A stretch of 20,000 bases of DNA from an uncultured virus (IMG/VR IMGVR_UViG_3300029319_000022) (taxonomy: Duplodnaviria; Heunggongvirae; Uroviricota; Caudoviricetes). The notes below the pieces were generated by a model, which was given only the letters and a program-made list of their open reading frames with translations, was not told the origin of the DNA and did no database searches. The DNA is taken from IMG/VR virus record IMGVR_UViG_3300029319_000022; one strand, written 5' to 3'. The position numbers were made by a program, and so were the translations under genes. Below, in pieces: positions 1,412 through 18,268 of the stretch. Within the stretch, counting starts at the first letter, position 1. Every line of letters starts with the position of its first letter.

Positions 1412-1827
1412 AAATCATATCCCATAGAGGGAATATCTCTGGCCCAGACTATAAAAACGAAAATCATCCAGATCAAATTTTAAAAGTCTTAAATAAAAAT
1501 ATTGATTGTGAAATAGATGTTTGGAGAATGGACGGAACATTCTACACTGGTCATGATAAACCTAATTATCAGATAGACTGGAAATTTATATGCAAACCTA
1601 ACTTATGGGTCCACGCTAAAAATTTAGAAGCTTTAACGAATCTACCTAACTATGTTAATTTTTTTTGGCATGAATCTGACGCATATACTTTAACATCAAA
1701 CGGTTACATTTGGACTTTTCCTGAACAACAGACATGCAAAAAAAGTATTATTGTCGATAAAAATAGAAATTGGAGAGACAAAAATTATAATTGCTTTGGA
1801 ATTTGCACAGATTATATTTTAAATTAA
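1408..1827 (+). CDS. Short glycerophosphodiester phosphodiesterase (GDPD/PLC-like) protein
   Basis: N-terminal 'IISHRG', 'EN', 'EIDV', 'GHD' and terminal 'GICTDY' are GDPD-family hallmarks. ATGA overlap. Confidence 0.75.
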   Translation: MKIISHRGNISGPDYKNENHPDQILKVLNKNIDCEIDVWRMDGTFYTGHDKPNYQIDWKFICKPNLWVHAKNLEALTNLPNYVNFFWHESDAYTLTSNGYIWTFPEQQTCKKSIIVDKNRNWRDKNYNCFGICTDYILN

Positions 1828-1833
1828 AAAAAA

Positions 1834-2856
1834 ATGGATAAAACAGCATTAATTTTAGGAGGTGGAGGCTTTATTGGTGGGCATCTGGCTAGGAAACTTA
1901 AAAATGAAGGATACTGGGTAAGAGCAGTGGATATTAAGCATCATGAGTACTTTGATTGGTCGGAGATATGTGATGAATTTATTCGGGCTGATTTGACAGA
2001 TGCAAAAATAATGTCTGAAGTTGTAGAACTTGGCCCAAATCATTCTTTTGATGAAGTTTATCAATTAGCCGCAGATATGGGCGGGGCAGGTTATATATTT
2101 ACAGGGGAGAACGACGCTAACGTGATGCATAATTCTGCGTTGATTAATTTACATTTAGCTAAAGAGGCGGTCAAACAAAAAGTTGGCAAAATATTTTATT
2201 CATCTTCAGCATGCATGTATCCAGAGCATAATCAGCTTGATCCTGATAATCCTAATTGCGAAGAGTCTTCAGCGTACCCTGCAAATCCAGATTCTGAATA
2301 TGGCTGGGAAAAACTTTTTAGTGAGAGATTATATTTAGCATTTCAAAGAAATTATGACCTTAAAATTAGAATAGGCAGATTTCATAATATTTTTGGCCCT
2401 CAAGGAACTTGGACAGGCGGCAAAGAAAAAGCTCCAGCTGCGATGTGTCGTAAAGTAGCAGAATGTGAAGACGGGGGAGAAATTGAGGTATGGGGAGATG
2501 GAAAACAAACTCGTTCTTTTTTATATATTGATGAGTGTTTAAAAGCTATTGAAAAGTTTATGGCTCAAGATCATTTTTCTGGCCCAGTTAACATTGGCTC
2601 AGAGGAAATGGTTACTATTAATGAATTAGCAGAGCTAGCTATTAAATCATCAGGCAAAAACATATCTATTAAAAATCTTTTTGGTGAAGAGTTTGAGCAA
2701 AAGTATGGTCATAAATGCCCATTAGGAGTGAAGGGTAGAAACTCTGACAACACACTTTTCAAAGATCAAATTGGCTGGGAATCACAAAAACCATTACTAG
2801 AGGGAGTGTCTTCAACATATAAATGGGTAGAAGAAAAAGTTAATGAAAAAAGATAA
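1834..2856 (+). CDS. NAD-dependent epimerase, GDP-mannose 3,5-epimerase-like extended SDR
   Basis: GGGGFIG Rossmann motif, 'LAADMGG', 'SSSACMYP', 'YGWEK' (YxxxK), 'RFHNIFGP.GTW.GG.EKAPAAMCRK'; closely follows the GME family pattern including the catalytic Cys and Lys. Confidence 0.88.
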   Translation: MDKTALILGGGGFIGGHLARKLKNEGYWVRAVDIKHHEYFDWSEICDEFIRADLTDAKIMSEVVELGPNHSFDEVYQLAADMGGAGYIFTGENDANVMHNSALINLHLAKEAVKQKVGKIFYSSSACMYPEHNQLDPDNPNCEESSAYPANPDSEYGWEKLFSERLYLAFQRNYDLKIRIGRFHNIFGPQGTWTGGKEKAPAAMCRKVAECEDGGEIEVWGDGKQTRSFLYIDECLKAIEKFMAQDHFSGPVNIGSEEMVTINELAELAIKSSGKNISIKNLFGEEFEQKYGHKCPLGVKGRNSDNTLFKDQIGWESQKPLLEGVSSTYKWVEEKVNEKR

Positions 2857-3922
2857 TATTGTAATTATTATCACTGGGGTTACTGGGCAAGACGGTAGTC
2901 TCATGACAGATTACTTACTCAAAAATACAAAGCACACAATTATTGGGGGCGCTAGACGGCTAAGTGTTAAAAATCACGATAATATTTCACATTTGCTTGA
3001 TCATCCAAGATTTTTTCTTATTGACTTAGATGTCACTGACCCTCAAAACATAGATAAAGTAATAGCTGAGCATAAACCTCATTACTTTATAAATTTTGCA
3101 GCAAATTCTTTTGTTGGGAATAGCTGGACACAGCCAGTAAATCACATGGTGACAAACTGTATGTCTGTTTTACATCAATTAGAAGCCATAAAAAGGCACT
3201 GCCCACAATGTAGATACTACAATGCTGGATCGTCTGAGGAATTTGGCGATGTCATAACACAACCACAAAATGAAGAACATCCACTCAGACCAAGAAGTCC
3301 TTATGGCGCTTCAAAATGTTCCGCTAGGCACTTAGTAAAAGTATATCGAGACTCTTATGGGTTATATGCAATTCAAGGTTGGCTTTTTAATCATGAAGGT
3401 GTACGTAGAGGTTCAGAATTTGTCACTAGAAAGATTACTCAAAATGTTGCACGTATTAGCAATGAATACGTTAATAAAAAAAATTTTGAACCTTTGAAAC
3501 TTGGAAATGTAGAGTCTAGAAGAGATTGGAGCGATACTGAAGATTTTATGGATGGTGTATGGAGAATGTTAAATCAAGAACAATATTCAACTAAAACTTC
3601 TAAAAAAACTCCTGACGATTATGTTTTATCTTCAGATGAAACACATAGCATAAAAGAATTTGTTGAGGAGGCGTTTCATATAGCTGGATTTCACAGATCA
3701 ATGTGTAGATGGGAGGGATTTGAGGAAAACACTAAGTATTTTCATGGTGATGATTTATTAATGGAGGTTGATCCAAAGTTTTACAGACCAGCAGAAGTTG
3801 ACTTACTGCTTGGTGATTCAACCAGAGCTAGAAATGAGCTTGGCTGGGAGCCTAAAAGCACTTTTGTAGACTTAGTAAGAAAAATGGTTGACAATGATTT
3901 AAAAATTGTAAATTCTTATTAG
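2843..3922 (+). CDS. gmd: GDP-mannose 4,6-dehydratase
   Basis: 'ITGVTGQDGS', 'SSEEFG', 'PRSPYGASK', 'LFNHE..RRG..FVTRKIT', 'LGN....RDW', 'YRPAEVDLLLGD...AR.ELGWEP'. Confidence 0.95.
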   Translation: MKKDNIVIIITGVTGQDGSLMTDYLLKNTKHTIIGGARRLSVKNHDNISHLLDHPRFFLIDLDVTDPQNIDKVIAEHKPHYFINFAANSFVGNSWTQPVNHMVTNCMSVLHQLEAIKRHCPQCRYYNAGSSEEFGDVITQPQNEEHPLRPRSPYGASKCSARHLVKVYRDSYGLYAIQGWLFNHEGVRRGSEFVTRKITQNVARISNEYVNKKNFEPLKLGNVESRRDWSDTEDFMDGVWRMLNQEQYSTKTSKKTPDDYVLSSDETHSIKEFVEEAFHIAGFHRSMCRWEGFEENTKYFHGDDLLMEVDPKFYRPAEVDLLLGDSTRARNELGWEPKSTFVDLVRKMVDNDLKIVNSY

Positions 3923-4269: not shown

Positions 4270-5371
4270 CGGACCAGACCCAAATGAACTTCTTGGCAAT
4301 TTTTTGAAATCAAACAAAAGCGATCATTATAACTTTGAAAAAGAGTGCGATTACAAAGTCTCTAGTGGATCTTTGCAGTTTGACCTTTGTATGAATGGAG
4401 GCTTTGGACCTGGATTACATCGCTTTACTGGGCTGACTGAGGGAGGTAAAACCTCTGAAGCCTTGGAAGTAATGAAGAATTTCTTAAACACTGTAGAGAA
4501 GCCAAGAGGTTTGTACATCAAAGCTGAAGGTAGACTCGCTCCAGAAATAAGAGAAAGATCAGGTGTAAAGTTTGTTTGGTCAGCCGATGAATGGGAGGAT
4601 GGTACTTGTTTTGTGCTAGAAACGAATATATATGAAACAGCTATGACTTGCATCAAGCAACTTATAGATAATGTAAAAAACCCACAAAAATATTGTTTTA
4701 TATTAGATTCTGTTGATGGATTAACAGCGAAAAATGACGCATCTAAAGGTTTTGAAGAGTTTGCTAAAATAGCCTCTGGAGCGTCTATTGCAGCTAGGTG
4801 GTGTGCTCAAACTAGTATAGCTTTAGGCAAGAGAGGTCACATGGCTATTTTTATTAGTCAGGTAAGATCAGAAATGAGAGATCAATATTCTAAAGAGCCG
4901 CCTAGACAATCTGTAGCTACAGGTGGATATGCTTTACAGCATTATGCTAATACTTGCATACAGTTTCAACCTAGGTATAAAGCCGACTTGATTCTTCAGA
5001 ACCCAAGTTTAAAAACTATTGATGAGAAAAAAAACCCAATCATTGGCCATTTTGCAAAGGTTTTAATAGCTAAATCCCCTAATGAAAAATCAAATGTCAC
5101 TTTAACTTATCCTGTTAGGTACAATAGATCTGGTGGCAACTCTATATGGATTGAAAAAGAGGTAGTTGATTTACTTTATGCTTGGGACTTTGTAGAAAAA
5201 AAAGGATCTTGGATCAAACCTACAGATGATTTCAAAGATTTATTAAATGATAATAAATTAGAGTTTCCTGAGCAAGTTCAAGGAGATAACAATTTATTTA
5301 AAATCCTTGATGAAGATCAAAAACTTTGCAAATTTTTAATTGATTACTTCAAACAGCAAATAACCTCATGA
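4262..5371 (+). CDS. recA: Divergent RecA/UvsX-like recombinase
   Basis: 'VSSGSLQFDL.MNGG', Walker A 'GLTEGGKTS', 'YIKAEG', Walker B 'FILDSV', 'IFISQVR', 'ATGGYALQHYA', 'VEKKGSW'. Confidence 0.88.
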   Translation: MSDGPDPNELLGNFLKSNKSDHYNFEKECDYKVSSGSLQFDLCMNGGFGPGLHRFTGLTEGGKTSEALEVMKNFLNTVEKPRGLYIKAEGRLAPEIRERSGVKFVWSADEWEDGTCFVLETNIYETAMTCIKQLIDNVKNPQKYCFILDSVDGLTAKNDASKGFEEFAKIASGASIAARWCAQTSIALGKRGHMAIFISQVRSEMRDQYSKEPPRQSVATGGYALQHYANTCIQFQPRYKADLILQNPSLKTIDEKKNPIIGHFAKVLIAKSPNEKSNVTLTYPVRYNRSGGNSIWIEKEVVDLLYAWDFVEKKGSWIKPTDDFKDLLNDNKLEFPEQVQGDNNLFKILDEDQKLCKFLIDYFKQQITS

Positions 5372-5775
5372 AGTTTGTTGATCAATATGGTAAACAAAGA
5401 AATCTTAAAAACGCAAAAAAATATTTAATAGATTGGCATAAACCTAGTCGTAGCAAATTTCAAACAAAGGTTAAGAAATTTCTTTTTGAATATTGGCAGA
5501 ACGATATTGTTTTTGAGGAGTTCAGAGTTGTAGGGACTAGATTAACTTTAGATTTTTATAACGCCAATAAAAAAATTGCTGTTGAAGTTCAAGGGGCGCA
5601 ACATACAAAGTATGTAAAATTCTTCCATAAAAATCACTTTAAATATTCTGATCAGTTAAAAAGAGATGAAAAGAAACTTGATTTCTGTCAAGCAAATGGC
5701 ATAAAGTTAGCAGAGGTTTATCCTCAAGATGAGATACAGGCATCATTATTTAAGAATCAAGATATATACCTATGA
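5368..5775 (+). CDS. Vsr/DUF559-like PD-(D/E)XK endonuclease
   Basis: 'LDFY....KIAVEVQGAQH' and 'RDEKKLDFCQANGIKLAEV' fit the DUF559/very-short-patch nuclease pattern. Confidence 0.75.
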   Translation: MKFVDQYGKQRNLKNAKKYLIDWHKPSRSKFQTKVKKFLFEYWQNDIVFEEFRVVGTRLTLDFYNANKKIAVEVQGAQHTKYVKFFHKNHFKYSDQLKRDEKKLDFCQANGIKLAEVYPQDEIQASLFKNQDIYL

Positions 5776-9576: not shown

Positions 9577-9600
9577 CAGTTGATGATGTGGTCATATATT
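9573..9600 (+). promoter_or_regulatory. Sigma70-type promoter, probably producing a leaderless mRNA
   Basis: Perfect TTGACA (9573-9578), 16-nt spacer, TATATT (9595-9600); ATG at 9607. Sits in the only sizeable gap in the replication block. Confidence 0.6.
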
Positions 9601-9606
9601 TTTTAC

Positions 9607-10326
9607 ATGACCCCAATTTTTAAGTCAGATTATTCAATAGGTAAAAGTATTCTTACTATAGAAAACATAGTAAAGCTTTACAAAAAAACTAATGAAAAGT
9701 TTTTGGTCTTAGTTGAGGACTCTATGACTGGTTTTGTGAAAGCTCATAACTTGACAAAACAAAATGACATACATCTAGTTTTTGGGTTGAGAGTGTCTTG
9801 TTGCAACGACGTATCAAAAGAAAATGATAATTCAGATCATAAAGTTATAATTTTAGCAAAAAACGATCAAGGCTGTAAGTTGTTAAATAAAATATACTCT
9901 TTTGCTCATATAGGTAACAAAGGTCAAGTTGATTTTAATTATTTAAACACAATATGGGATAATGATAGTTTGGAGTTAGTAATCCCTTTTTACGATTCTT
10001 TTATATATCAAAATCAATTGTACTTAAAAAATTGCATACCTAATTTTAATAAAATTAAACCTATTTTTTGGATAGAGAAAAACAACTTGCCATTTGACGA
10101 TATTATATCTCAAGCTGTTTTTGAGTATTGCAAGGATAAATATGATTCAGAGTTGGTAAAAAGCGTTTTGTATGAAAAAAAAGATGATGCAGAGGCTTTA
10201 CAGACATATAAAATTATATGTGGCAGGAAATTTGGTAGACCCTCCACATTAAGTTGTCCAAATTTAAATCATTTTGGCAGTAATGAGTTTTGCTTTGAAA
10301 GTTTTGAGGAGTACGTAAATGGATGA
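9607..10326 (+). CDS. Stand-alone degenerate PHP domain (N-terminal part of DNA polymerase III alpha)
   Basis: 'FKSDYSIGKSILTIENIV', 'LVEDSMTGF', 'LVFGLRV', 'HKVIILAKNDQG..LLNKI.S.A', 'EFCFESFEE' align with the DnaE PHP domain but lack the metal-binding His residues. ATG 9607 is preferred to the listed TTG 9580, which lies inside the promoter. Confidence 0.8.
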   Translation: MTPIFKSDYSIGKSILTIENIVKLYKKTNEKFLVLVEDSMTGFVKAHNLTKQNDIHLVFGLRVSCCNDVSKENDNSDHKVIILAKNDQGCKLLNKIYSFAHIGNKGQVDFNYLNTIWDNDSLELVIPFYDSFIYQNQLYLKNCIPNFNKIKPIFWIEKNNLPFDDIISQAVFEYCKDKYDSELVKSVLYEKKDDAEALQTYKIICGRKFGRPSTLSCPNLNHFGSNEFCFESFEEYVNG

Positions 10327-10951
10327 TACATTACTAAGATTTAATAAAAATCAAAAATACATTGTTTTTGATACTGAAACGGAGGGTTTGAATTTAATTA
10401 CATCAAGACCTTGGCAAATTGCTTGGCTTGTGGTAAAAGGTGATGAAATTCAAGAGAGGCATGATAAATTTATACATTGGCCTAATATAAATGTATCTGA
10501 AGGTGCAGCTAAAGTTACAGGTTTTTCAGAAAAAAAATACTATTCTAAGTCCTTAGCGCCAAATCAAGTATGGGATGAATTTTCTAAGTATTTGTATGAT
10601 GAAGATACTTTGATAGTCGGTCAAAACTTACTTGGATTTGATGTATATATGATTGATGTCTGGCGTAGAGCGATGGGTAGAAAATTAGATCAGAGTTATA
10701 TAAAAAGAATCATAGATACTAAAGCTTTAGCAACCGCCATAGCTAAAAACATACCATATAATAATGATAAATTTATTAATTGGCAATATAGGCTTCTAAA
10801 TTATAAGGAGAGAGGTTTAAAAACATCACAGGGTTTCTTGTTAAAGCATTATAACATAAAACACGACCCTAAAAAACTTCATGACGCACTCTATGACATA
10901 GAGATGAATTTTAAAATATTTAAAAAACAACTTTTTGATTTAGAGATATGA
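10319..10951 (+). CDS. dnaQ: DEDDh 3'-5' exonuclease (Pol III epsilon-like)
   Basis: ExoI 'VFDTETEG', ExoII 'GQNLLGFD', ExoIII 'HDALYD' all intact. Confidence 0.88.
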   Translation: MDDTLLRFNKNQKYIVFDTETEGLNLITSRPWQIAWLVVKGDEIQERHDKFIHWPNINVSEGAAKVTGFSEKKYYSKSLAPNQVWDEFSKYLYDEDTLIVGQNLLGFDVYMIDVWRRAMGRKLDQSYIKRIIDTKALATAIAKNIPYNNDKFINWQYRLLNYKERGLKTSQGFLLKHYNIKHDPKKLHDALYDIEMNFKIFKKQLFDLEI

Positions 10952-13518
10952 AACTTTCAAGTTACAAGCCATATAAAACACCTTTTCCAGTTGGCGTAAA
11001 ACTGCCAGAGATTAAGATAGAAAAAAAATATTATGACGAGGTTTCTTGCAAAGACCTGGAAGGTAACTATCAGTTCCTAAGAAAGCTTTGCTTCAATAGA
11101 TTAAAACAAAAAGGCATACATGAATTAGAAAATGCTCAAGTTTACTATGATAGATTAAAAGAAGAATTACAAATTTTTGAAGATCTTGGATTTATTGACT
11201 ATGTTCTTTTAAACTGGGACATAATAAATTTTTGTGTACAGAATGACATCCCTGTTGGTGCAGGTAGAGGCAGCGCCGCTGGATCTTTGGTTCTATATGT
11301 TATTGGCGTAACGGACATAGATCCTATAGAGCATGATTTATTTTTTGAGAGATTTGTATCTAAAAGCAGAGCTAAAAAAATAGAACATAATGGTGAAATA
11401 TATTTAGATGGCAGCTTATTAGCTGATGTTGACAATGATATTTCCTATGATCGTAGATCTGAGGTCATTGAATACATTGAAAAAAAATTTAAAGGTAGGA
11501 CTTCTAAAATTTTAACATTAAATACTCTAAGCAGTAAGCTTTGCATGAAAGAGTGTTGTAAAATAGTTGAAGAGCTTTCAGAAGCTGATGTCAATATAAT
11601 TAGTGAAAGCATACCTAAAACTTTTGGTAAAGTTGCAAGTTTAAACAATGCTTGCAATGAGAGTGAAACTTTTAAAAAACATGCAGATAATCATGCAAAA
11701 GCTTTTGCTATAGCAAAAAAATTAGAAGGTTTAAATAAAAACACAGGGGTACACCCTTCAGGCATATCAATATCATTTTTTGATTTAGAAGATATTATGC
11801 CCTTACAGCTAACTAATGACGATTCACTAATATCAGCTTATGATATGAATGATGTCGCTAGTTTAACAGTCAAGTTTGACATTTTAGGTTTAAGAACTTT
11901 ATCTGTTGTAAACGATGTCTGCAAACAGCTTAAAATAAATGTAAAAGACATAGATCCTCACGATCCATCAATATATGCAGCTTTATCTTGTTTACGATCT
12001 CCTCAAGGATTATTTCAAATTGAAGCCGACACAAACTATAAAGTCTGTCGCACAATATGCCCCAAAAGTTTAGAGGAATTATCTGCTGTTGTGGCTATAG
12101 CAAGACCTGGAGCTTTAGAGTTTTTGGACTATTATGCAGCATACGCTAGAACAGGCGATTTTTCATCTGTTCATGAGTTTTTTGACGATATTTTAAGCTA
12201 TACAGGCGGTATACCTCTTTACCAAGAGCAGCTCATGAAAATGGCTGTTAAAGTTGGCTTTAGTTTAGATGAGTCAGAACAATTAAGAAGAATAATTGGT
12301 AAGAAAAAAACCGAGCAAATGCCAGCTTGGAAAGCTAAAATAACACAAAAAATAAAAGATAATAATTTAGATGCTAAAATCGGTGAAGTTTTGTGGAAAG
12401 TAGCTGAAGATTCAGCTAATTACTCTTTTAATAAGTCGCATTCCATAAGTTATGCCTATCTAGCTGCAATAACAGTTTATTTAAAGTTTAATTATCCTAA
12501 AGAGTTCTTTTTAAGTCTTTTAAAATATGCAAAATATGAGCCAAACTCTCATGAGGAGATAGCAAAAATCACCCAAGAGCTTTCATCATTTAATATTAAA
12601 CTTTTACCACCTGATTTGAACAAATCGGACATAGATTTTAAAATAGAAGGCTCAAACATAAGATATGGCTTAAATTCTATTAAAGGAGTTTCAGATAAAG
12701 TTTTACAGTCATTATTAAATTTTAGAGAGGAAAGTTTTTCTAATAAATATGACATTTTTGTTTCTGCTAAACAGGCAGGAATGAACATAGGTATTTTATC
12801 AGCTTTAATTCAAGCGGGATTATTAGATTCTTTTGTCTCTTCAAACAGATGCCGTTTAGTTCTTGAGGCTCAAACCTTTAATATATTAACTGATAGAGAA
12901 AAGCGTAATTTTATTGAGCTTGGCACAAAATATGACTTTGATATTTTAAATGCAGTCCATGATCAATATTCTAGCAAGTCTGTCGGTGATGACGGCAGAT
13001 TAATGATGACTGAAAAAAGGTTTCAAACTTTTAAGAAAAAGTATGGTCCATACAAAGATATTTATGAAATGAATAAAAAGTATCTTAGGTACGCTAATTG
13101 GTTTTTTGAAAACAAATTGCTTGGGTACAGCTACTCGCATAAATTAAAAGATATTTTTGACTTATCTCAAGACTTTGTATCCGCTGAAGAAATCAAAATA
13201 GAATCTAATGAAGAGTCTCCTGCTTTTAGAGATTTAAAATTTATAGGTGTTGTAACAGATTCTGTAAAAAGAACTAGCAGAAATGGTAACAAGTATGTTA
13301 GATTAGATTTGCAAGATGAAAGTGCGCTAATAAGCGGTTTATTCATGGATTCTGATAGAGAACAAAAATTAACAAATTATCTAAATTCTGGTAATAAAAT
13401 ACCTAAAAAAGAAGACATTGTTGTAATTCATGGTAGATTAGGTGAGGATATAATTTTTATAGAAAAAATGCATTCTTTAAAAGATAAAATCTACATGAAA
13501 CTATCTGAGATAAAATAG
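10948..13518 (+). CDS. dnaE: DNA polymerase III alpha catalytic core (family C), lacking the PHP domain
   Basis: 'GRGSAAGSLV', 'FERF', catalytic 'DVDND', 'GVHPSG', 'KFDILGL', 'LYQEQLM', 'YSFNKSHS..Y', HhH 'GLNSIKGV', C-terminal OB-fold. Begins at the post-PHP region. Confidence 0.95.
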   Translation: MKLSSYKPYKTPFPVGVKLPEIKIEKKYYDEVSCKDLEGNYQFLRKLCFNRLKQKGIHELENAQVYYDRLKEELQIFEDLGFIDYVLLNWDIINFCVQNDIPVGAGRGSAAGSLVLYVIGVTDIDPIEHDLFFERFVSKSRAKKIEHNGEIYLDGSLLADVDNDISYDRRSEVIEYIEKKFKGRTSKILTLNTLSSKLCMKECCKIVEELSEADVNIISESIPKTFGKVASLNNACNESETFKKHADNHAKAFAIAKKLEGLNKNTGVHPSGISISFFDLEDIMPLQLTNDDSLISAYDMNDVASLTVKFDILGLRTLSVVNDVCKQLKINVKDIDPHDPSIYAALSCLRSPQGLFQIEADTNYKVCRTICPKSLEELSAVVAIARPGALEFLDYYAAYARTGDFSSVHEFFDDILSYTGGIPLYQEQLMKMAVKVGFSLDESEQLRRIIGKKKTEQMPAWKAKITQKIKDNNLDAKIGEVLWKVAEDSANYSFNKSHSISYAYLAAITVYLKFNYPKEFFLSLLKYAKYEPNSHEEIAKITQELSSFNIKLLPPDLNKSDIDFKIEGSNIRYGLNSIKGVSDKVLQSLLNFREESFSNKYDIFVSAKQAGMNIGILSALIQAGLLDSFVSSNRCRLVLEAQTFNILTDREKRNFIELGTKYDFDILNAVHDQYSSKSVGDDGRLMMTEKRFQTFKKKYGPYKDIYEMNKKYLRYANWFFENKLLGYSYSHKLKDIFDLSQDFVSAEEIKIESNEESPAFRDLKFIGVVTDSVKRTSRNGNKYVRLDLQDESALISGLFMDSDREQKLTNYLNSGNKIPKKEDIVVIHGRLGEDIIFIEKMHSLKDKIYMKLSEIK

Positions 13519-13529: not shown

Positions 13530-15971
13530 ATGATGGGTTTAACAGATTTCAATTTAACTCCAAAAGCAAAAAAATGCATAAAAGATGCAAAAGCTTTTGC
13601 ACAATCTAATAATCATAAGTTAATCAACATAAGTCATTTAATTTATGGATGTTTAGTAAATTTATCTGATAGTTGTGTGGTAAAGCTTAAAAGTTTTGGG
13701 TTTGATCCAGATATAAAAGAATTTTTAAAATTATTTAAAGAGTTTTGCAAAGAAAGAAAAGATTTGTATGACACTGATGAAGAAGGTTGGCACGAAGAAG
13801 TTAATGAAGTAATCTTTTTTGCTAAAGATTTTTCAGATAACTTTGACAGCTATTTTATTGGAGTAGAGCACATACTGTACGTTATTTTTGACATAGACGG
13901 TGATTTTGTAAAATTCTTAAAACAAAAAAATGTTGAGGTTCAATACGCTAAAGAAATCATAGAAGCTCATGTTGTAGAGACATCAATACCATCTACAGAT
14001 CAGGTTAAAAATATTTTTCATATAGAAGGCAAAAAAGTTTTTTCTTTTGAAAAAGTTGACGCTAAAAAAACTTTAAAAAGCATACAAATATTAGAGAAGT
14101 ATTGTGTTAATTTAAATCATAAATTTATAACAGAAAATTCATCAACAATTTCTTGTAGAGACTCAGAAATTAATGAGTTAATTGAGATTTTACTTAAAAA
14201 AAATAAATGTAATGCGATTCTCATTGGTGATGCTGGCGTTGGTAAAACTGCGATAGTAGAGGGTTTAGCGCAAAAGATTGTAAATCAAGAAGTGCCCTGT
14301 CATTTAGCATTGATGCAAATATACTCAGTTGATATAACTTCAATGTTAGCTGGTACAAAGTATCGTGGAGAGTTCGAGGAGAGATTCAAGCAATTGATAA
14401 ATGAAGTTTCTAAAGATGACAATATTATACTTTTTATAGATGAGATACATACTATTATTGGAGCTGGCAGTTCTGAAGGGGGAGTTGATGCCTCAAACAT
14501 GTTAAAACCAGCTTTAGCTCGCGGTAATATAAAATGCATAGGCGCTACAACCCTTCAAGAATACAAAAAATTCTTTGAAAAAGACTCTGCGATTACCCGA
14601 AGATTCGATAAAATTTTAGTTAATCAGCCTAGCAAATCAGATACTAAAAAAATTATAATCAATACCTTAGAATACTATGAAAATTTTCATCATGTTAAGT
14701 ATGAAGAAAAAGAAATAGATTTGATTTTAGATTTGTGTGAAACATTTTTAAGTAATAAAAATTTTCCAGATAAAGCTTTTGATGTAATTGATCAAGTTGG
14801 AGCTAAAACTAAGATAAAATATTTTAAAAACTCAGATAAAGTTATTGATGCCCGCGAGACTTTTACTGGCTTAATAAAAAATTTAGATGATAATTCAGAG
14901 TTTGATGAGGCTAAATTTACTGAAATCATAAAAGATTATATAACTACAATGTCTACATTTATGACCTCTAAGGGTAAGGGTAGAAAAAGAAAAATTAAAG
15001 AAAATGACATAATAGACGTAGTTAGTGAAAAAAGCGGCATATCAAAAAAAGCAATCATGCAAAAAAAGAATATTTTCTCTAAGTTTATGGAAAATATTAA
15101 ATCTGAAGTTTTTGGGCAAGATGAGGCATTAGAGAGAATATATAGCAATCTATCATGTGCTAAAACAGGTCTATCAGATAAAAATAAACCGCTATCAAGT
15201 TTTCTGTTTGTAGGTTCTACTGGAGTGGGTAAAACATTCACAGCTAAGAATATAGCTAAATACTTTTTTGGTAGCGAGAAATCTTACATACAGCTTAATA
15301 TGAGTGAGTATCAAGACAAAACTAGTATAAATAAATTAATTGGTGCAAGCGCTGGATACGTTGGTTATGAGGATGGCGGTATATTGTCTGAGCATGTAAG
15401 AAATAACCCTAATTGCGTGGTTGTATTTGATGAAATAGAAAAATGTGAGCCAAAAATATTGGACATTTTACTACATTTATTAGATGAGGGTTACATAACA
15501 GATAACTTAAATAGAAAAATTGATTTTAGTAATACAATAGTTGTTATGACATCAAACATAGGTCAGCAGCAAAAACATAAAAGAAGCATGGGGTTTTTAG
15601 ATGACTCTGACAGCCCTAAAAAATTAGAAAATGCTGCCGTAAAAAAATATTTAAGACCTGAGCTAATCTCAAGAATAGATGAGATATTAAGTTTTAATGA
15701 TTTACAAGATTCTGTTTATCTAAGTATTATTACAAAAGAAATTAAAAAGCTCAAAGAAAGATTAGAGCTAAAAGGTGTCCACTTAAAAATAACGCCTCAT
15801 GTTAAAAAATTTATTTTTAATGAAATAAAAAACAAAAAAATTCATGCAAGAGATATAAAAAACTTTGTAAAGAAATTTATTCAATTCCCTGTTTCTAAGT
15901 ATATCATTGAGCATAAAGATGTTGATACAGTTGGAGTTAAGATAAAAAATAAAAACATATGTTGTTTATAA
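13530..15971 (+). CDS. ClpC/ClpA-type Hsp100 AAA+ unfoldase
   Basis: Clp N-domain repeats ('HLIYG', 'FIGVEHIL'); NBD1 'GDAGVGKT', '[11 protein letters not shown]', 'FIDEIH'; 'PDKAFDVID'; NBD2 'GSTGVGKT', 'GYVGY', 'FDEIEK'; 'MGF' loop. Start may be the second ATG at 13533. Confidence 0.93.
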
Positions 15972-15972
15972 A

Positions 15973-17025
15973 ATGAGTTTACATTTATACAATGACAAAG
16001 CTTATGTATTAAATACGCCCAGCTTAAAAGATTCTACTAGGGAGTATATTCTCAGCATTTTAGATAAAATATATAATCAGTTGAGTGTTGAAAACATAAC
16101 ACTGATAGATAATGGCATTAACTATGACACTTATTCTTTGAAAGCGTCAGATGGCAAGCTTTATCTTTTAAAAGTATCACTTGACCCAGATAATGTTCAG
16201 TTATCTAGGGAGAGTTTTTTTTTAAAGCAGTTAAAAAATTTTGCGTCTGCTAAGTTCATATGTCTTAAAAAAGTAAAAGTAGGGGATGATATATTATGTT
16301 TATTGTGCCAATTTCCTGATTGTATTAATTTAAAAGATGCTGGTAGAGATTTTTTCTTAAAAAATGCAGATGTATTTTTTTGGACTCATAAAGCTGTAAT
16401 TGAAAAAATTAAACCAAAAAGATTAAAAAGCGGATATCTTAAAGAATTAACTGAACACCAAAATTTTTCTAAAAATTTTACAGATAGAACAAAAAATTTA
16501 ATAAAAGATTATACTGACTACGATAAGTTAGAAAAAATTTTACTTAGCTTGCTTGATGATATCAGCCACACAGCTCCAAAGGTAAGTGATCCCATCCCAT
16601 GTTTGTCAAACATTACTATTGATTCTATATTTTTAACTAACTCATTGTTTTTTTTCGATAAGTTAGAAGATTGTTGTAAATATCACCCATATATAGACTT
16701 ATGTGATATAATATTGAATTTAAGCTATAAAGATGACGCAAAGGAGCAAATGATGTCTATATATAAATCCATTCACAAAGATTTTAATCAGGGAGAGTTT
16801 GATAGTTTTTTCAAATTTTGCGTTAAAAAGAAACTATTGGAAAGTCTTAGTGATTATCTGAGAGAAGTATATGAATTAAGATGCCTTAGAATAAATAAAA
16901 TAACTGATATTATGTCTGTATTCTATTCTAATTTTAAAAACTTTAAAAAATTACCTATTTTTATTGATAATCAAGATTTTTTACTTAAAACAATAACAGA
17001 ACCAGTTTTAGGTGTAAAAGCATAA
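15973..17025 (+). CDS. Hypothetical protein with a degenerate aminoglycoside/choline phosphotransferase-like fold
   Basis: N-lobe-like 'GINYDTYSL....KLYLLKV...L.RE..FL' and a C-lobe-like stretch 'PCLSNITIDSIFL...FFFDKLED....HPYIDL' whose spacing matches HGDL..NIL...IDWE.....P..DL but without the catalytic residues. Confidence 0.5.
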   Translation: MSLHLYNDKAYVLNTPSLKDSTREYILSILDKIYNQLSVENITLIDNGINYDTYSLKASDGKLYLLKVSLDPDNVQLSRESFFLKQLKNFASAKFICLKKVKVGDDILCLLCQFPDCINLKDAGRDFFLKNADVFFWTHKAVIEKIKPKRLKSGYLKELTEHQNFSKNFTDRTKNLIKDYTDYDKLEKILLSLLDDISHTAPKVSDPIPCLSNITIDSIFLTNSLFFFDKLEDCCKYHPYIDLCDIILNLSYKDDAKEQMMSIYKSIHKDFNQGEFDSFFKFCVKKKLLESLSDYLREVYELRCLRINKITDIMSVFYSNFKNFKKLPIFIDNQDFLLKTITEPVLGVKA

Positions 17026-17050: not shown

Positions 17051-18100
17051 ATGCCGATTCCAACTCCAAACGATAAAGAAAAAAGATCTGATTTTATGAG
17101 CAGATGTGTTGCTGATTTATCAGAAAAAGGGGAATTTGGAGATAATAAACAAAGAGTTGCTGTTTGCATATCACAATTCGAAAAAGCATCCAAAAAAGCT
17201 TCTGTTTCTGTAGGAAATGAGTTTTTAGATGGAAAAGGTCCATGGGATGACCAAGATTTATTTTTTTACTTTAATAAACCAAAAACTAAAATGAGCGAAG
17301 CTAGCTATCACGATAACGAGAAATCAAAATCTAATCGTCACAAAATGGACGAAAAAGAAACTAAAATATTCAAATCCTATATGAGTCATTGTGCTATGAA
17401 TGACGCTGATATGGTAGATACCAAGGATATGAATTTAGATAATACTATGAAAGCGTGTGGCGTTCAGTACGGCAAGGATAGGCCAATGCTCATGGAAAAT
17501 ACAAATGGCCAACTTACTGAAAAACAAAAGAAGTTGCCACCAGCCTTACAAGAGGCCATTCTTAAAAAAATGAAAGAGGAGGGTAAGGCAAATTATCATG
17601 ATGGAGATGAAGAAAGCAAAGCTGGCATGCATGAAAAGAAAAAGACAAAAGCTGGCATGCATGGAGACAAGAAAAAAATGAAAGGTGGCATGCATGAGGA
17701 AAAGAAAACTAAGGCTGGCATGCACAAGGATGAAGAGAAAATGAAAGGTGGCATGCACAAAGATAAGGAAAAAATGAAGGGCGGCATGCACAAAGATAAG
17801 GAAAAAATGAAGGGCGGCATGCACAAAGATAAGGAAAAAATGAAAGGTGGTATGCACAAAGATGAAAAAACTAAGGCTGGGATGCATCATAAGAAAAAAA
17901 TAGAGGCTGCTGACGACCCTATGGATCACTCCTTCCCTACAGCTAAAGAGGCCATGAAAGATGCAAAAAAACTAGGATTACAAGGTGTACACATGCACAA
18001 AGGTAAAGATGGCAAGCCTGTATACATGCCTGGAAAAAGCCATGATGAGTTTATGAAACGTCATAAGGAGATCATGAAAGAAAAAAAAAAGGCGAAATAA
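17051..18100 (+). CDS. Modular Lys/His/Met-rich repeat protein (possibly virion-associated); may extend to 18228 via a -1 frameshift
   Basis: 349-aa ORF of short modules ('MPIPTP..EKRSDFMSRC...QRVAVC', 'LTEKQKKLPPALQEAILKK', nine K[AG]GMH repeats, 'AKKLG..GVHMH....YMPG.SH'). Function not established. Confidence 0.8.
   Translation: MPIPTPNDKEKRSDFMSRCVADLSEKGEFGDNKQRVAVCISQFEKASKKASVSVGNEFLDGKGPWDDQDLFFYFNKPKTKMSEASYHDNEKSKSNRHKMDEKETKIFKSYMSHCAMNDADMVDTKDMNLDNTMKACGVQYGKDRPMLMENTNGQLTEKQKKLPPALQEAILKKMKEEGKANYHDGDEESKAGMHEKKKTKAGMHGDKKKMKGGMHEEKKTKAGMHKDEEKMKGGMHKDKEKMKGGMHKDKEKMKGGMHKDKEKMKGGMHKDEKTKAGMHHKKKIEAADDPMDHSFPTAKEAMKDAKKLGLQGVHMHKGKDGKPVYMPGKSHDEFMKRHKEIMKEKKKAK
17618..17887 (+). 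repeat. Coding tandem repeat: nine units of 30 or 33 bp encoding K[A/G]GMH plus charged residues
   Basis: ggcatgcacaaagataaggaaaaaatgaa occurs exactly at 17750, 17783 and 17816 (33-bp period); flanking units are diverged but in frame. Confidence 0.95.
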
Positions 18101-18228
18101 AGAGTAGTCTTTGGGAAAATATTAGAAAAAAAAGAGAACGCATAAAAAGAGGATCAGGCGAAAAAATGCGTAAAAAAGGAGACAAGGGCGCTCCTACTGC
18201 TGATCAAATAAAAAAAGCTCAAAAGTAA
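18081..18228 (+). other. Slippery A10-G run and a 45-codon -1 frame extension of the repeat protein
   Basis: Frame 0 reads GAA AAA AAA AAG GCG AAA TAA. The -1 frame from 18091 reads GEIKSSLWENIRKKRERIKRGSGEKMRKKGDKGAPTADQIKKAQK* (stop 18226-18228) with no upstream start codon after the in-frame stop at 18064-18066. Confidence 0.7.
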
Positions 18229-18268
18229 TTTTATATAGAAAAATACTACTTTATTAATAGTATCGTAC

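Follow-up and report, generated by a model that had tools for sequence, protein, structure and literature searches.

The DNA stretch studied here raises the question of how a coding sequence without a start codon is reached. The stretch (IMG/VR record IMGVR_UViG_3300029319_000022; 20,000 nt, in the following the window) stems from an uncultured marine phage of the Caudoviricetes with 31% guanine and cytosine (GC), and its plus-strand genes are closely packed. Behind one of them, the open reading frame (ORF) ORF0, lies a gap of 168 nt (18101-18268), which is the widest between plus-strand ORFs of the window (runner-up, 25 nt). ORF0 ends with GAA AAA AAA AAG GCG AAA TAA, and most of the gap is filled by a protein-like frame at -1 relative to ORF0. 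The original prediction had proposed that a -1 frameshift at the run of ten adenines (A10), or transcriptional slippage on it, adds this frame to ORF0 as a basic C-terminal tail, which might bind nucleic acids. Based on comparison with related sequences, the tail appears to be a genuine coding module reached from ORF0 at the A-run, and slippage at the run, at the level of either RNA polymerase or the ribosome, probably makes a long isoform. The elements of the locus are the following.

17051-18100, plus strand: ORF0, encoding 349 aa with the C-terminus KEKKKAK directly before the stop.
18041-18076, plus strand: two-tier RNA hairpin (-12 kcal/mol, z -4.09), its 3' end lying 4 nt upstream of the G in front of the run.
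18064-18070, plus strand: Shine-Dalgarno (SD)-like TAAGGAG, which equals the codons His-Lys-Glu.
18081-18090, plus strand: A10 run, the proposed slippage site, holding the phased A_AAA_AAG heptamer (18085-18091).
18098-18100, plus strand: stop codon TAA of ORF0, two codons past the A-run.
18091-18228, plus strand: tail frame, at -1 relative to ORF0, with 45 codons and TAA and without a start codon.
18103-18225, plus strand: conserved module SSLWENIRKK...GDKGAPT..QIKKAQK within the tail frame.

The end of ORF0, the run, the heptamer and the SD-like site were all found in the sequence as originally described. The same holds for the rank of the gap, for the -1 frame lacking its own start and for the peptide quoted from it. 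Reading at -1 meets no stop between 18067 and the TAA at 18226-18228, and no ATG, GTG or TTG lies upstream of the conserved part in the tail frame of the window.

The 45-aa tail matched phrog_16028 with an expectation value (E) of 1.2e-17, residues 4-45 aligning with positions 3-44 of the 50 profile positions. No Pfam match was found for the tail. The module is encoded in 506 viral contig stretches, and 1234 representatives in a library of 1.84 billion proteins match the tail (E<=0.001). In the top 150 of the matches listed, the module lies N-terminally, internally or C-terminally in proteins of 51-939 aa. As judged from these matches, the tail is a self-contained, very basic and mobile module. 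One protein of 241 aa (P0089) contains three stretches matching it (E 6.7e-34). Three loci (L090, L098, and L106; ~1394-1640) encode the small protein MSLWENINKRKK..., a stand-alone LWENI-type peptide with its own ATG, which starts one base past a gene ending in ..KKKKGY with an A9 run.

The motif is part of an ORF that has a start further upstream in 74 of the 86 locus rows. Most of these ORFs share the build of ORF0, that is, an MPLPxP...QRxAVC N-terminus, a variable middle and a ...YMAGP.H..FMKRH.EIL segment. In the in-frame relatives, a short Lys/Glu linker (KEKEK) whose length varies is joined through SDSS directly to LWENIRKK.... From these architectures, the module is seen to belong normally to an ORF0-type protein, in frame.

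The 12 rows without a start represent nine contigs, eight of which form one clade with the window. The clade tree was calculated with FastTree from 55 unique proteins over three short aligned segments, and its resolution is limited. More clade members were obtained by a metagenome scan with the ORF0 alignment of the clade, and 26 sequences were clustered at 98.5% identity over 330 nt into 16 distinct lineages. The tail frame was at -1 relative to ORF0 in 11 lineages, at +1 in four (L014, L015, L116, and L126) and in frame in one (L127, owing to one additional G behind the run). The run itself was uninterrupted in 16/16 lineages (A10 in 15, A9 in one), and seven of the 14 invariant Lys/Glu codon columns near it were A/G-variable at the third position. 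The spacer between run and tail measured 18, 17, 16, or 19 nt. The comparison of related genomes suggested in the original prediction thus found the arrangement out of frame in 15 lineages and the run kept in all. Homologs that are always fused in frame, the outcome named there as contrary to recoding, were met in most of the wider family, but not in the clade of the window.

The frame-setting indels of the clade were single-base changes in ordinary non-homopolymer sequence between run and tail, and homopolymer sequencing error is therefore not the source of the frame states.

An independent count in a protein database comprised 35 cluster representatives (E below 1e-100). Four of these were fragments, 29 ended two to five residues past the K-run and two were fused, so that 29/31 informative clade proteins end just past the run. 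The fused proteins were P0035 (L127 type) and P0027 (...KEKKDKIESS...). The latter (308 aa), with one Lys fewer, may correspond to an L124-type gene with a run shorter by two, as read from the protein only; a pattern search of IMG/VR for a run-shortened in-frame variant gave 0 matches. Another protein, P0026 (276 aa), ends in KEKEKKKKK and may be encoded with a longer A-run. The L014-type protein was found on eight contigs from three sources.

A separate out-of-frame case was observed in a long (~500-aa) branch. At L007 (3994-4021; the contig is also L019 and L107), an A9 run, a 5-nt duplication and an immediate TAA are followed by the tail at -1, and the sister contig (L008/L101) has A9 and is in frame. 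The shortened 501-aa protein of L007 is recorded on three contigs.

For the tail, pairwise ratios of non-synonymous to synonymous substitution rates (dN/dS) were 0.016-0.14 (27 informative pairs, eight lineages). The tails of the window and L005, for example, differ by ten synonymous changes and one non-synonymous change. Across the 16 lineages, 4, 7, and 29 columns were variable at codon positions 1, 2, and 3 of the tail (41 columns each), and 20, 13, and 37 in the last 45 codons of ORF0. Length and stop position of the tail frame were the same in all lineages, and no internal stops occurred. These substitution patterns indicate that the tail is under strong purifying selection and that it is translated in the clade. 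Because the out-of-frame state is common to the clade, the divergence of the tail arose while it was out of frame.

An own start of the tail offers no simple explanation for its translation. Neither ATG nor GTG nor TTG precedes the motif in 15/15 out-of-frame lineages, and the sole recurrent candidate start codon is ATA or GTA, dictated by the overlapping ORF0 stop. With only these two codons available, an independent tail start was ruled out. No promoter-like site starts on the plus strand at 17571-18253, so none lies just upstream of the tail, and no plus-strand terminator-like site was found between ORF0 and tail. Furthermore, as two clade forms are fused, ORF0 together with the tail constitutes the biologically meaningful product. 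Isoforms of 349 and 392 aa, as in the original prediction, are the best reading of the comparative evidence.

The original prediction had also cautioned that a homopolymer assembly error would look the same. This caveat was rejected. Contigs of three runs from three studies (X2 record 1, X8 record 6, and X9 record 11) cross the A-run with 0 gaps and differ from the window at 5-8 other positions; since these independent runs agree, an assembly error is ruled out as the origin of A10. The same run length occurs in a virus record with 96% identity to the stretch and in 5/5 IMG/VR contigs of the window subtype. The single read in raw-read run X21 ends inside the A-run, and the sequencing runs listed for the phage included none of RNA.

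With regard to chance, ~0.7-1.7 runs of at least ten A are expected per 20 kb of the composition of the window, and one is present. The A10 run alone is within chance; the frame content and its conservation are beyond chance. By comparison of coordinates, and not by checking each run individually, the remaining 12 A8 runs map to ORFs that are listed without a break. The sole other A9 run of the window (1826-1834) adjoins the ATG of the ORF at 1834-2856. This ORF and the next one, at 2843-3922, are paralogues in tandem that encode nucleotide-sugar epimerases.

Of the signals around the run, the upstream hairpin reached z <= -2.8 in 10/16 clade lineages compared to 0/14 equivalent windows of in-frame relatives. 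AAGGAG was present in 3/16 clade lineages and is not a conserved element. A conserved 3' stem-loop or pseudoknot was not found in the clade, where the RNAalifold consensus was weak (-7.62 kcal/mol, long-range pairs). On the 3' side, the minimum-free-energy fold of the window contains one 6-pair helix, which uses the last A's of the run. This agrees with the original prediction, in which no clear 3' hairpin was seen. The A_AAA_AAG heptamer is of no use to the four +1 lineages. A search for a phage-encoded T7-like RNA polymerase (PF00940) in two related incomplete records gave no match, a result of little weight since the control gave none either.

From this arrangement, we infer the following mechanism. 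ORF0 and the frame after it would belong to a single gene, in which the final module lies behind an A9-A10 run and is kept out of frame. Translation without any shift would give the 349-aa protein ending two codons past the run, and slippage on the run would let a fraction of the products gain the 45-residue basic module, resulting in 392 aa. In window-type lineages, realignment of the RNA on ten rA:dT pairs would yield mRNAs with one added A; in the +1 lineages, the required mRNAs would carry one A fewer or two more. The nascent-RNA hairpin just 5' of the run may aid slippage in many lineages, and ribosomes shifting by -1 on A_AAA_AAG probably contribute some of the long product in the -1 lineages. 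Runs of nine A or T cause efficient slippage in bacteria, and a stem-loop in the nascent RNA 5' of the slip motif stimulates slippage by RNA polymerase (PMC5009743).

On balance, RNA polymerase is somewhat favored as the main slipping agent. It is the likelier agent because the shifts go in both directions, the SD-like site is restricted to 3/16 lineages and the hairpin lies upstream of the run in 10/16. It is also favored because the unbroken run, and not a heptamer with stimulators, is the constant feature, because a change of +1 or -2, which is beyond a dnaX-type shift, is required in 4/15 out-of-frame lineages, and because no conserved 3' structure was found. Of the two routes that had been considered originally, transcriptional slippage on at least nine A is thus the better fit.

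Several observations weigh against slippage by RNA polymerase or against a need for slippage at all. The slippery heptamer is in phase in 11/11 of the -1 lineages (A_AAA_AAG in ten, A_AAA_AAA in L005). The hairpin is weak or absent in 6/16 lineages, and it consists of palindromic codons (CATGA/TCATG) without real covariation among clade members that are mutually related. Poly(A) sliding is performed by ribosomes as well (PMC4363877), and in one study poly(A) is reported to provoke slippage of E. coli RNA polymerase less readily than poly(T) (PMC6260861). The two in-frame clade forms (L127/P0035 and P0027) mean that the out-of-frame state is not obligatory. Moreover, selection after the switch to +1 is not separable, the tails of L014 and L015 being identical. 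Between the tails of L116 and L014, four amino-acid and two synonymous changes were counted, and L116 has Asp in place of an otherwise invariant Gly. Some +1 lineages could therefore be decaying.

These points bear most directly on a purely translational -1 frameshift on A_AAA_AAG of the dnaX/IS911 type, helped by the SD-like site, with the +1 lineages as recent dead variants. Ribosomal -1 shifting would fit the window and the -1 lineages, all of which have the heptamer in phase, equally well. In the window, TAAGGAG lies 14 nt upstream of the heptamer, the SD spacing rule of dnaX-type sites being 10-14 nt, the 0-frame stop follows close behind, and relaxed constraint is hinted at in L116. The arrangement was originally put forward from the heptamer and the SD-like site of the window; as a conserved mechanism, however, it found no support. 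Since a conserved SD and a conserved 3' structure, two defining features of the dnaX/IS911 cassette, both fail, this cassette is not matched: the SD-like site occurs in just 3/16 lineages, a conserved 3' stem-loop was not found in the clade, and the 4/15 out-of-frame lineages with the tail at +1 are widespread (L014 type: eight contigs, three sources). Between the tails of the +1 lineage L126 and its nearest -1 relative, furthermore, the four changes counted are all synonymous, and none alters an amino acid. We regard this explanation as unlikely, though it deserves serious consideration. Phase variation of the DNA, in which the A tract is hypermutable and subpopulations with A11, A8 or A9 encode the fused protein while the majority genotype encodes the short one, seems quite improbable. 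It would account for P0027, whose fusion, judged from the protein only, would fit a run with two A fewer, and for the several frame-state changes within the clade. In contrast, every contig of the window subtype (the window, G001, three Logan contigs, and 5/5 from IMG/VR) has A10, although contigs hide rare variants, and the other changes of frame map to sequence beside the run.

The remaining explanations dispense with the joining of ORF0 and tail. That the tail is an unexpressed, pseudogenised remnant or an assembly artefact is very improbable. A-runs are common at 31% GC, and about one run of at least ten A per 20 kb is expected, but the low dN/dS, the concentration of variable columns at the third codon position (29, versus 4 and 7) and the identical stop and length in 16 lineages argue against a remnant, and the A10 agreed upon by independent assemblies and the frame-setting indels in non-homopolymer sequence argue against an artefact. 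A separate peptide of ~43 aa, initiated at a non-canonical codon or, after termination at the ORF0 stop, by reinitiation there, appears extremely improbable. Such a peptide would recall the stand-alone small ORFs that carry the module with an ATG elsewhere (L090/L098/L106 and L045/L074) and the phrog_16028 profile, which is only 50 positions long, and in the window an ATA overlaps the ORF0 stop. This codon is GTA in L002 and L003, however, and the lack of ATG, GTG and TTG before the motif, the two in-frame forms that join tail and ORF0, and the lack of a plus-strand promoter-like site just upstream of the tail speak against such a peptide.

Slippage at the run, the preferred reading, has several known counterparts. 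The closest precedent is tssM1 of C. rodentium, for which transcriptional slippage on A11 ahead of a premature stop yields functional variants of two lengths (PMC4256274). As in this gene, and in tssM of Y. pseudotuberculosis, ~10-11 A precede a stop and a conserved C-terminal domain lies downstream out of frame; relatives with the gene in one frame exist, and there are two length variants, which are predicted here. The present case differs from tssM1 in that a phage gene is concerned, that the cargo is a 45-aa mobile module and not a large domain, and that the arrangement is clade-wide with -1 and +1 layouts. The A_AAA_AAG heptamer is shared with E. coli dnaX and the kind of run with dnaX of Thermus thermophilus, where it measures 9 nt; related dnaX genes arrive at their two products in different ways (PMC5009743). 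The situation proposed here is the reverse of that in both dnaX genes, where the long form is the standard product and slippage yields the short form, and the phage clade has no conserved counterpart of the 5' SD and the 3' stem-loop known from E. coli dnaX.

Similarly, in Shigella spa13 and other type III secretion genes, slippage adds a C-terminal extension to a minority of products (25-30% for spa13; PMC5009743), albeit in another gene family and another biological setting. A nascent-RNA hairpin just 5' of the slip motif, found here in 10/16 lineages, is described for IS630 of Roseiflexus (PMC5009743). Its motif, T5C5, is wholly hairpin-dependent, whereas the present run is long enough unaided and the hairpin is not universal. 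An end-of-gene -1 frameshift giving an extended isoform is known from gene 10A/10B of phage T7. The tail chaperone G/GT of lambda is likewise a phage gene with a minor, C-terminally extended isoform made by a shift near the end (PMC5009743). Both phage cases are ribosomal, use short heptamers in structural genes and have a fixed direction, in contrast to the homopolymer and varying direction observed here. Taken by analogy, the arrangement would work like tssM1, spa13, and Thermus dnaX, and in part like E. coli dnaX. No report of this family, or of slippage in such phages, was found in the literature.

ORF0 itself is composed of an N-terminal segment (MPxPxP...QRVAVC), His/Met-rich repeats and a C-terminal segment (...YMPG..H..FMKRH). 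The repeats are as follows.

17618-17870, plus strand: tandem 30/33-nt repeats encoding ..GGMHKDKEKMK.. units, with a copy number that varies across relatives.

In this region of ORF0, ~7-9 Met- and His-rich units of 11 aa follow one another in tandem, and sister lineages carry ..KAMDMP.. units in their place. Repeat-linked length forms of ORF0 of 349, 327, 306, and 286 aa were found. The composition of the repeats is reminiscent of Met/His metal-binding motifs, which we take to be a candidate likeness. ORF0 of the window had no match in Pfam or PHROG; relatives of ORF0 with PF12518 (DUF3721) and PF19141 (DUF5824) were found. Matches in the ESM Atlas were restricted to 'hypothetical protein', viruses and DUF3721. 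Among GenBank phages, the DNA of the region, the tail and ORF0 were all without a match, distant DnaE matches being the only ones, and no cultured relative was found in these comparisons. For an in-frame relative of 171 aa, AlphaFold2 with 26 sequences gave a poor model (mean predicted local distance difference test score 63.8; 41-57 in the tail).

The neighboring genes encode a UvsX-like recombinase, a DnaB-like helicase, a primase and a glycosyltransferase, and an HNH/homing-endonuclease-like ORF (5368-5775) lies between the recombinase and helicase genes. DnaE polymerase is encoded in three adjoining or overlapping ORFs (9580-13518).

9580-10326: PHP-like N-terminal part of DnaE.
10319-10951: exonuclease subunit.
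10948-13518: polymerase core.

Within the replication module, this is followed by a ClpA/ClpB-like double AAA+ ATPase of 813 aa (13530-15971; phrog_4871, E 1e-209). The subsequent ORF of 350 aa (15973-17025) had no family match.

The case is distinguished by its phage setting, by a small mobile module as cargo and by a clade that combines one run with three layouts (-1, +1, and in frame). Tentatively, selection may actively keep a module that is otherwise fused out of frame in either direction, behind a slippery A-run with a nascent-RNA hairpin, with slippage by RNA polymerase acting as a heritable dial of the module-bearing share and repeated switches between the three layouts as its evolutionary retuning. 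The layouts of the clade form a ready comparative series to tell slippage by RNA polymerase from ribosomal slippage. Gene callers miss the tail and leave it as "intergenic," 29 of the 31 informative entries ending at the run. The locus would add a natural recoding case, well supported by sequence comparison, from uncultured ocean phages, where almost none are documented, and it draws attention to a very common and unstudied basic viral module whose dosage seems to matter.

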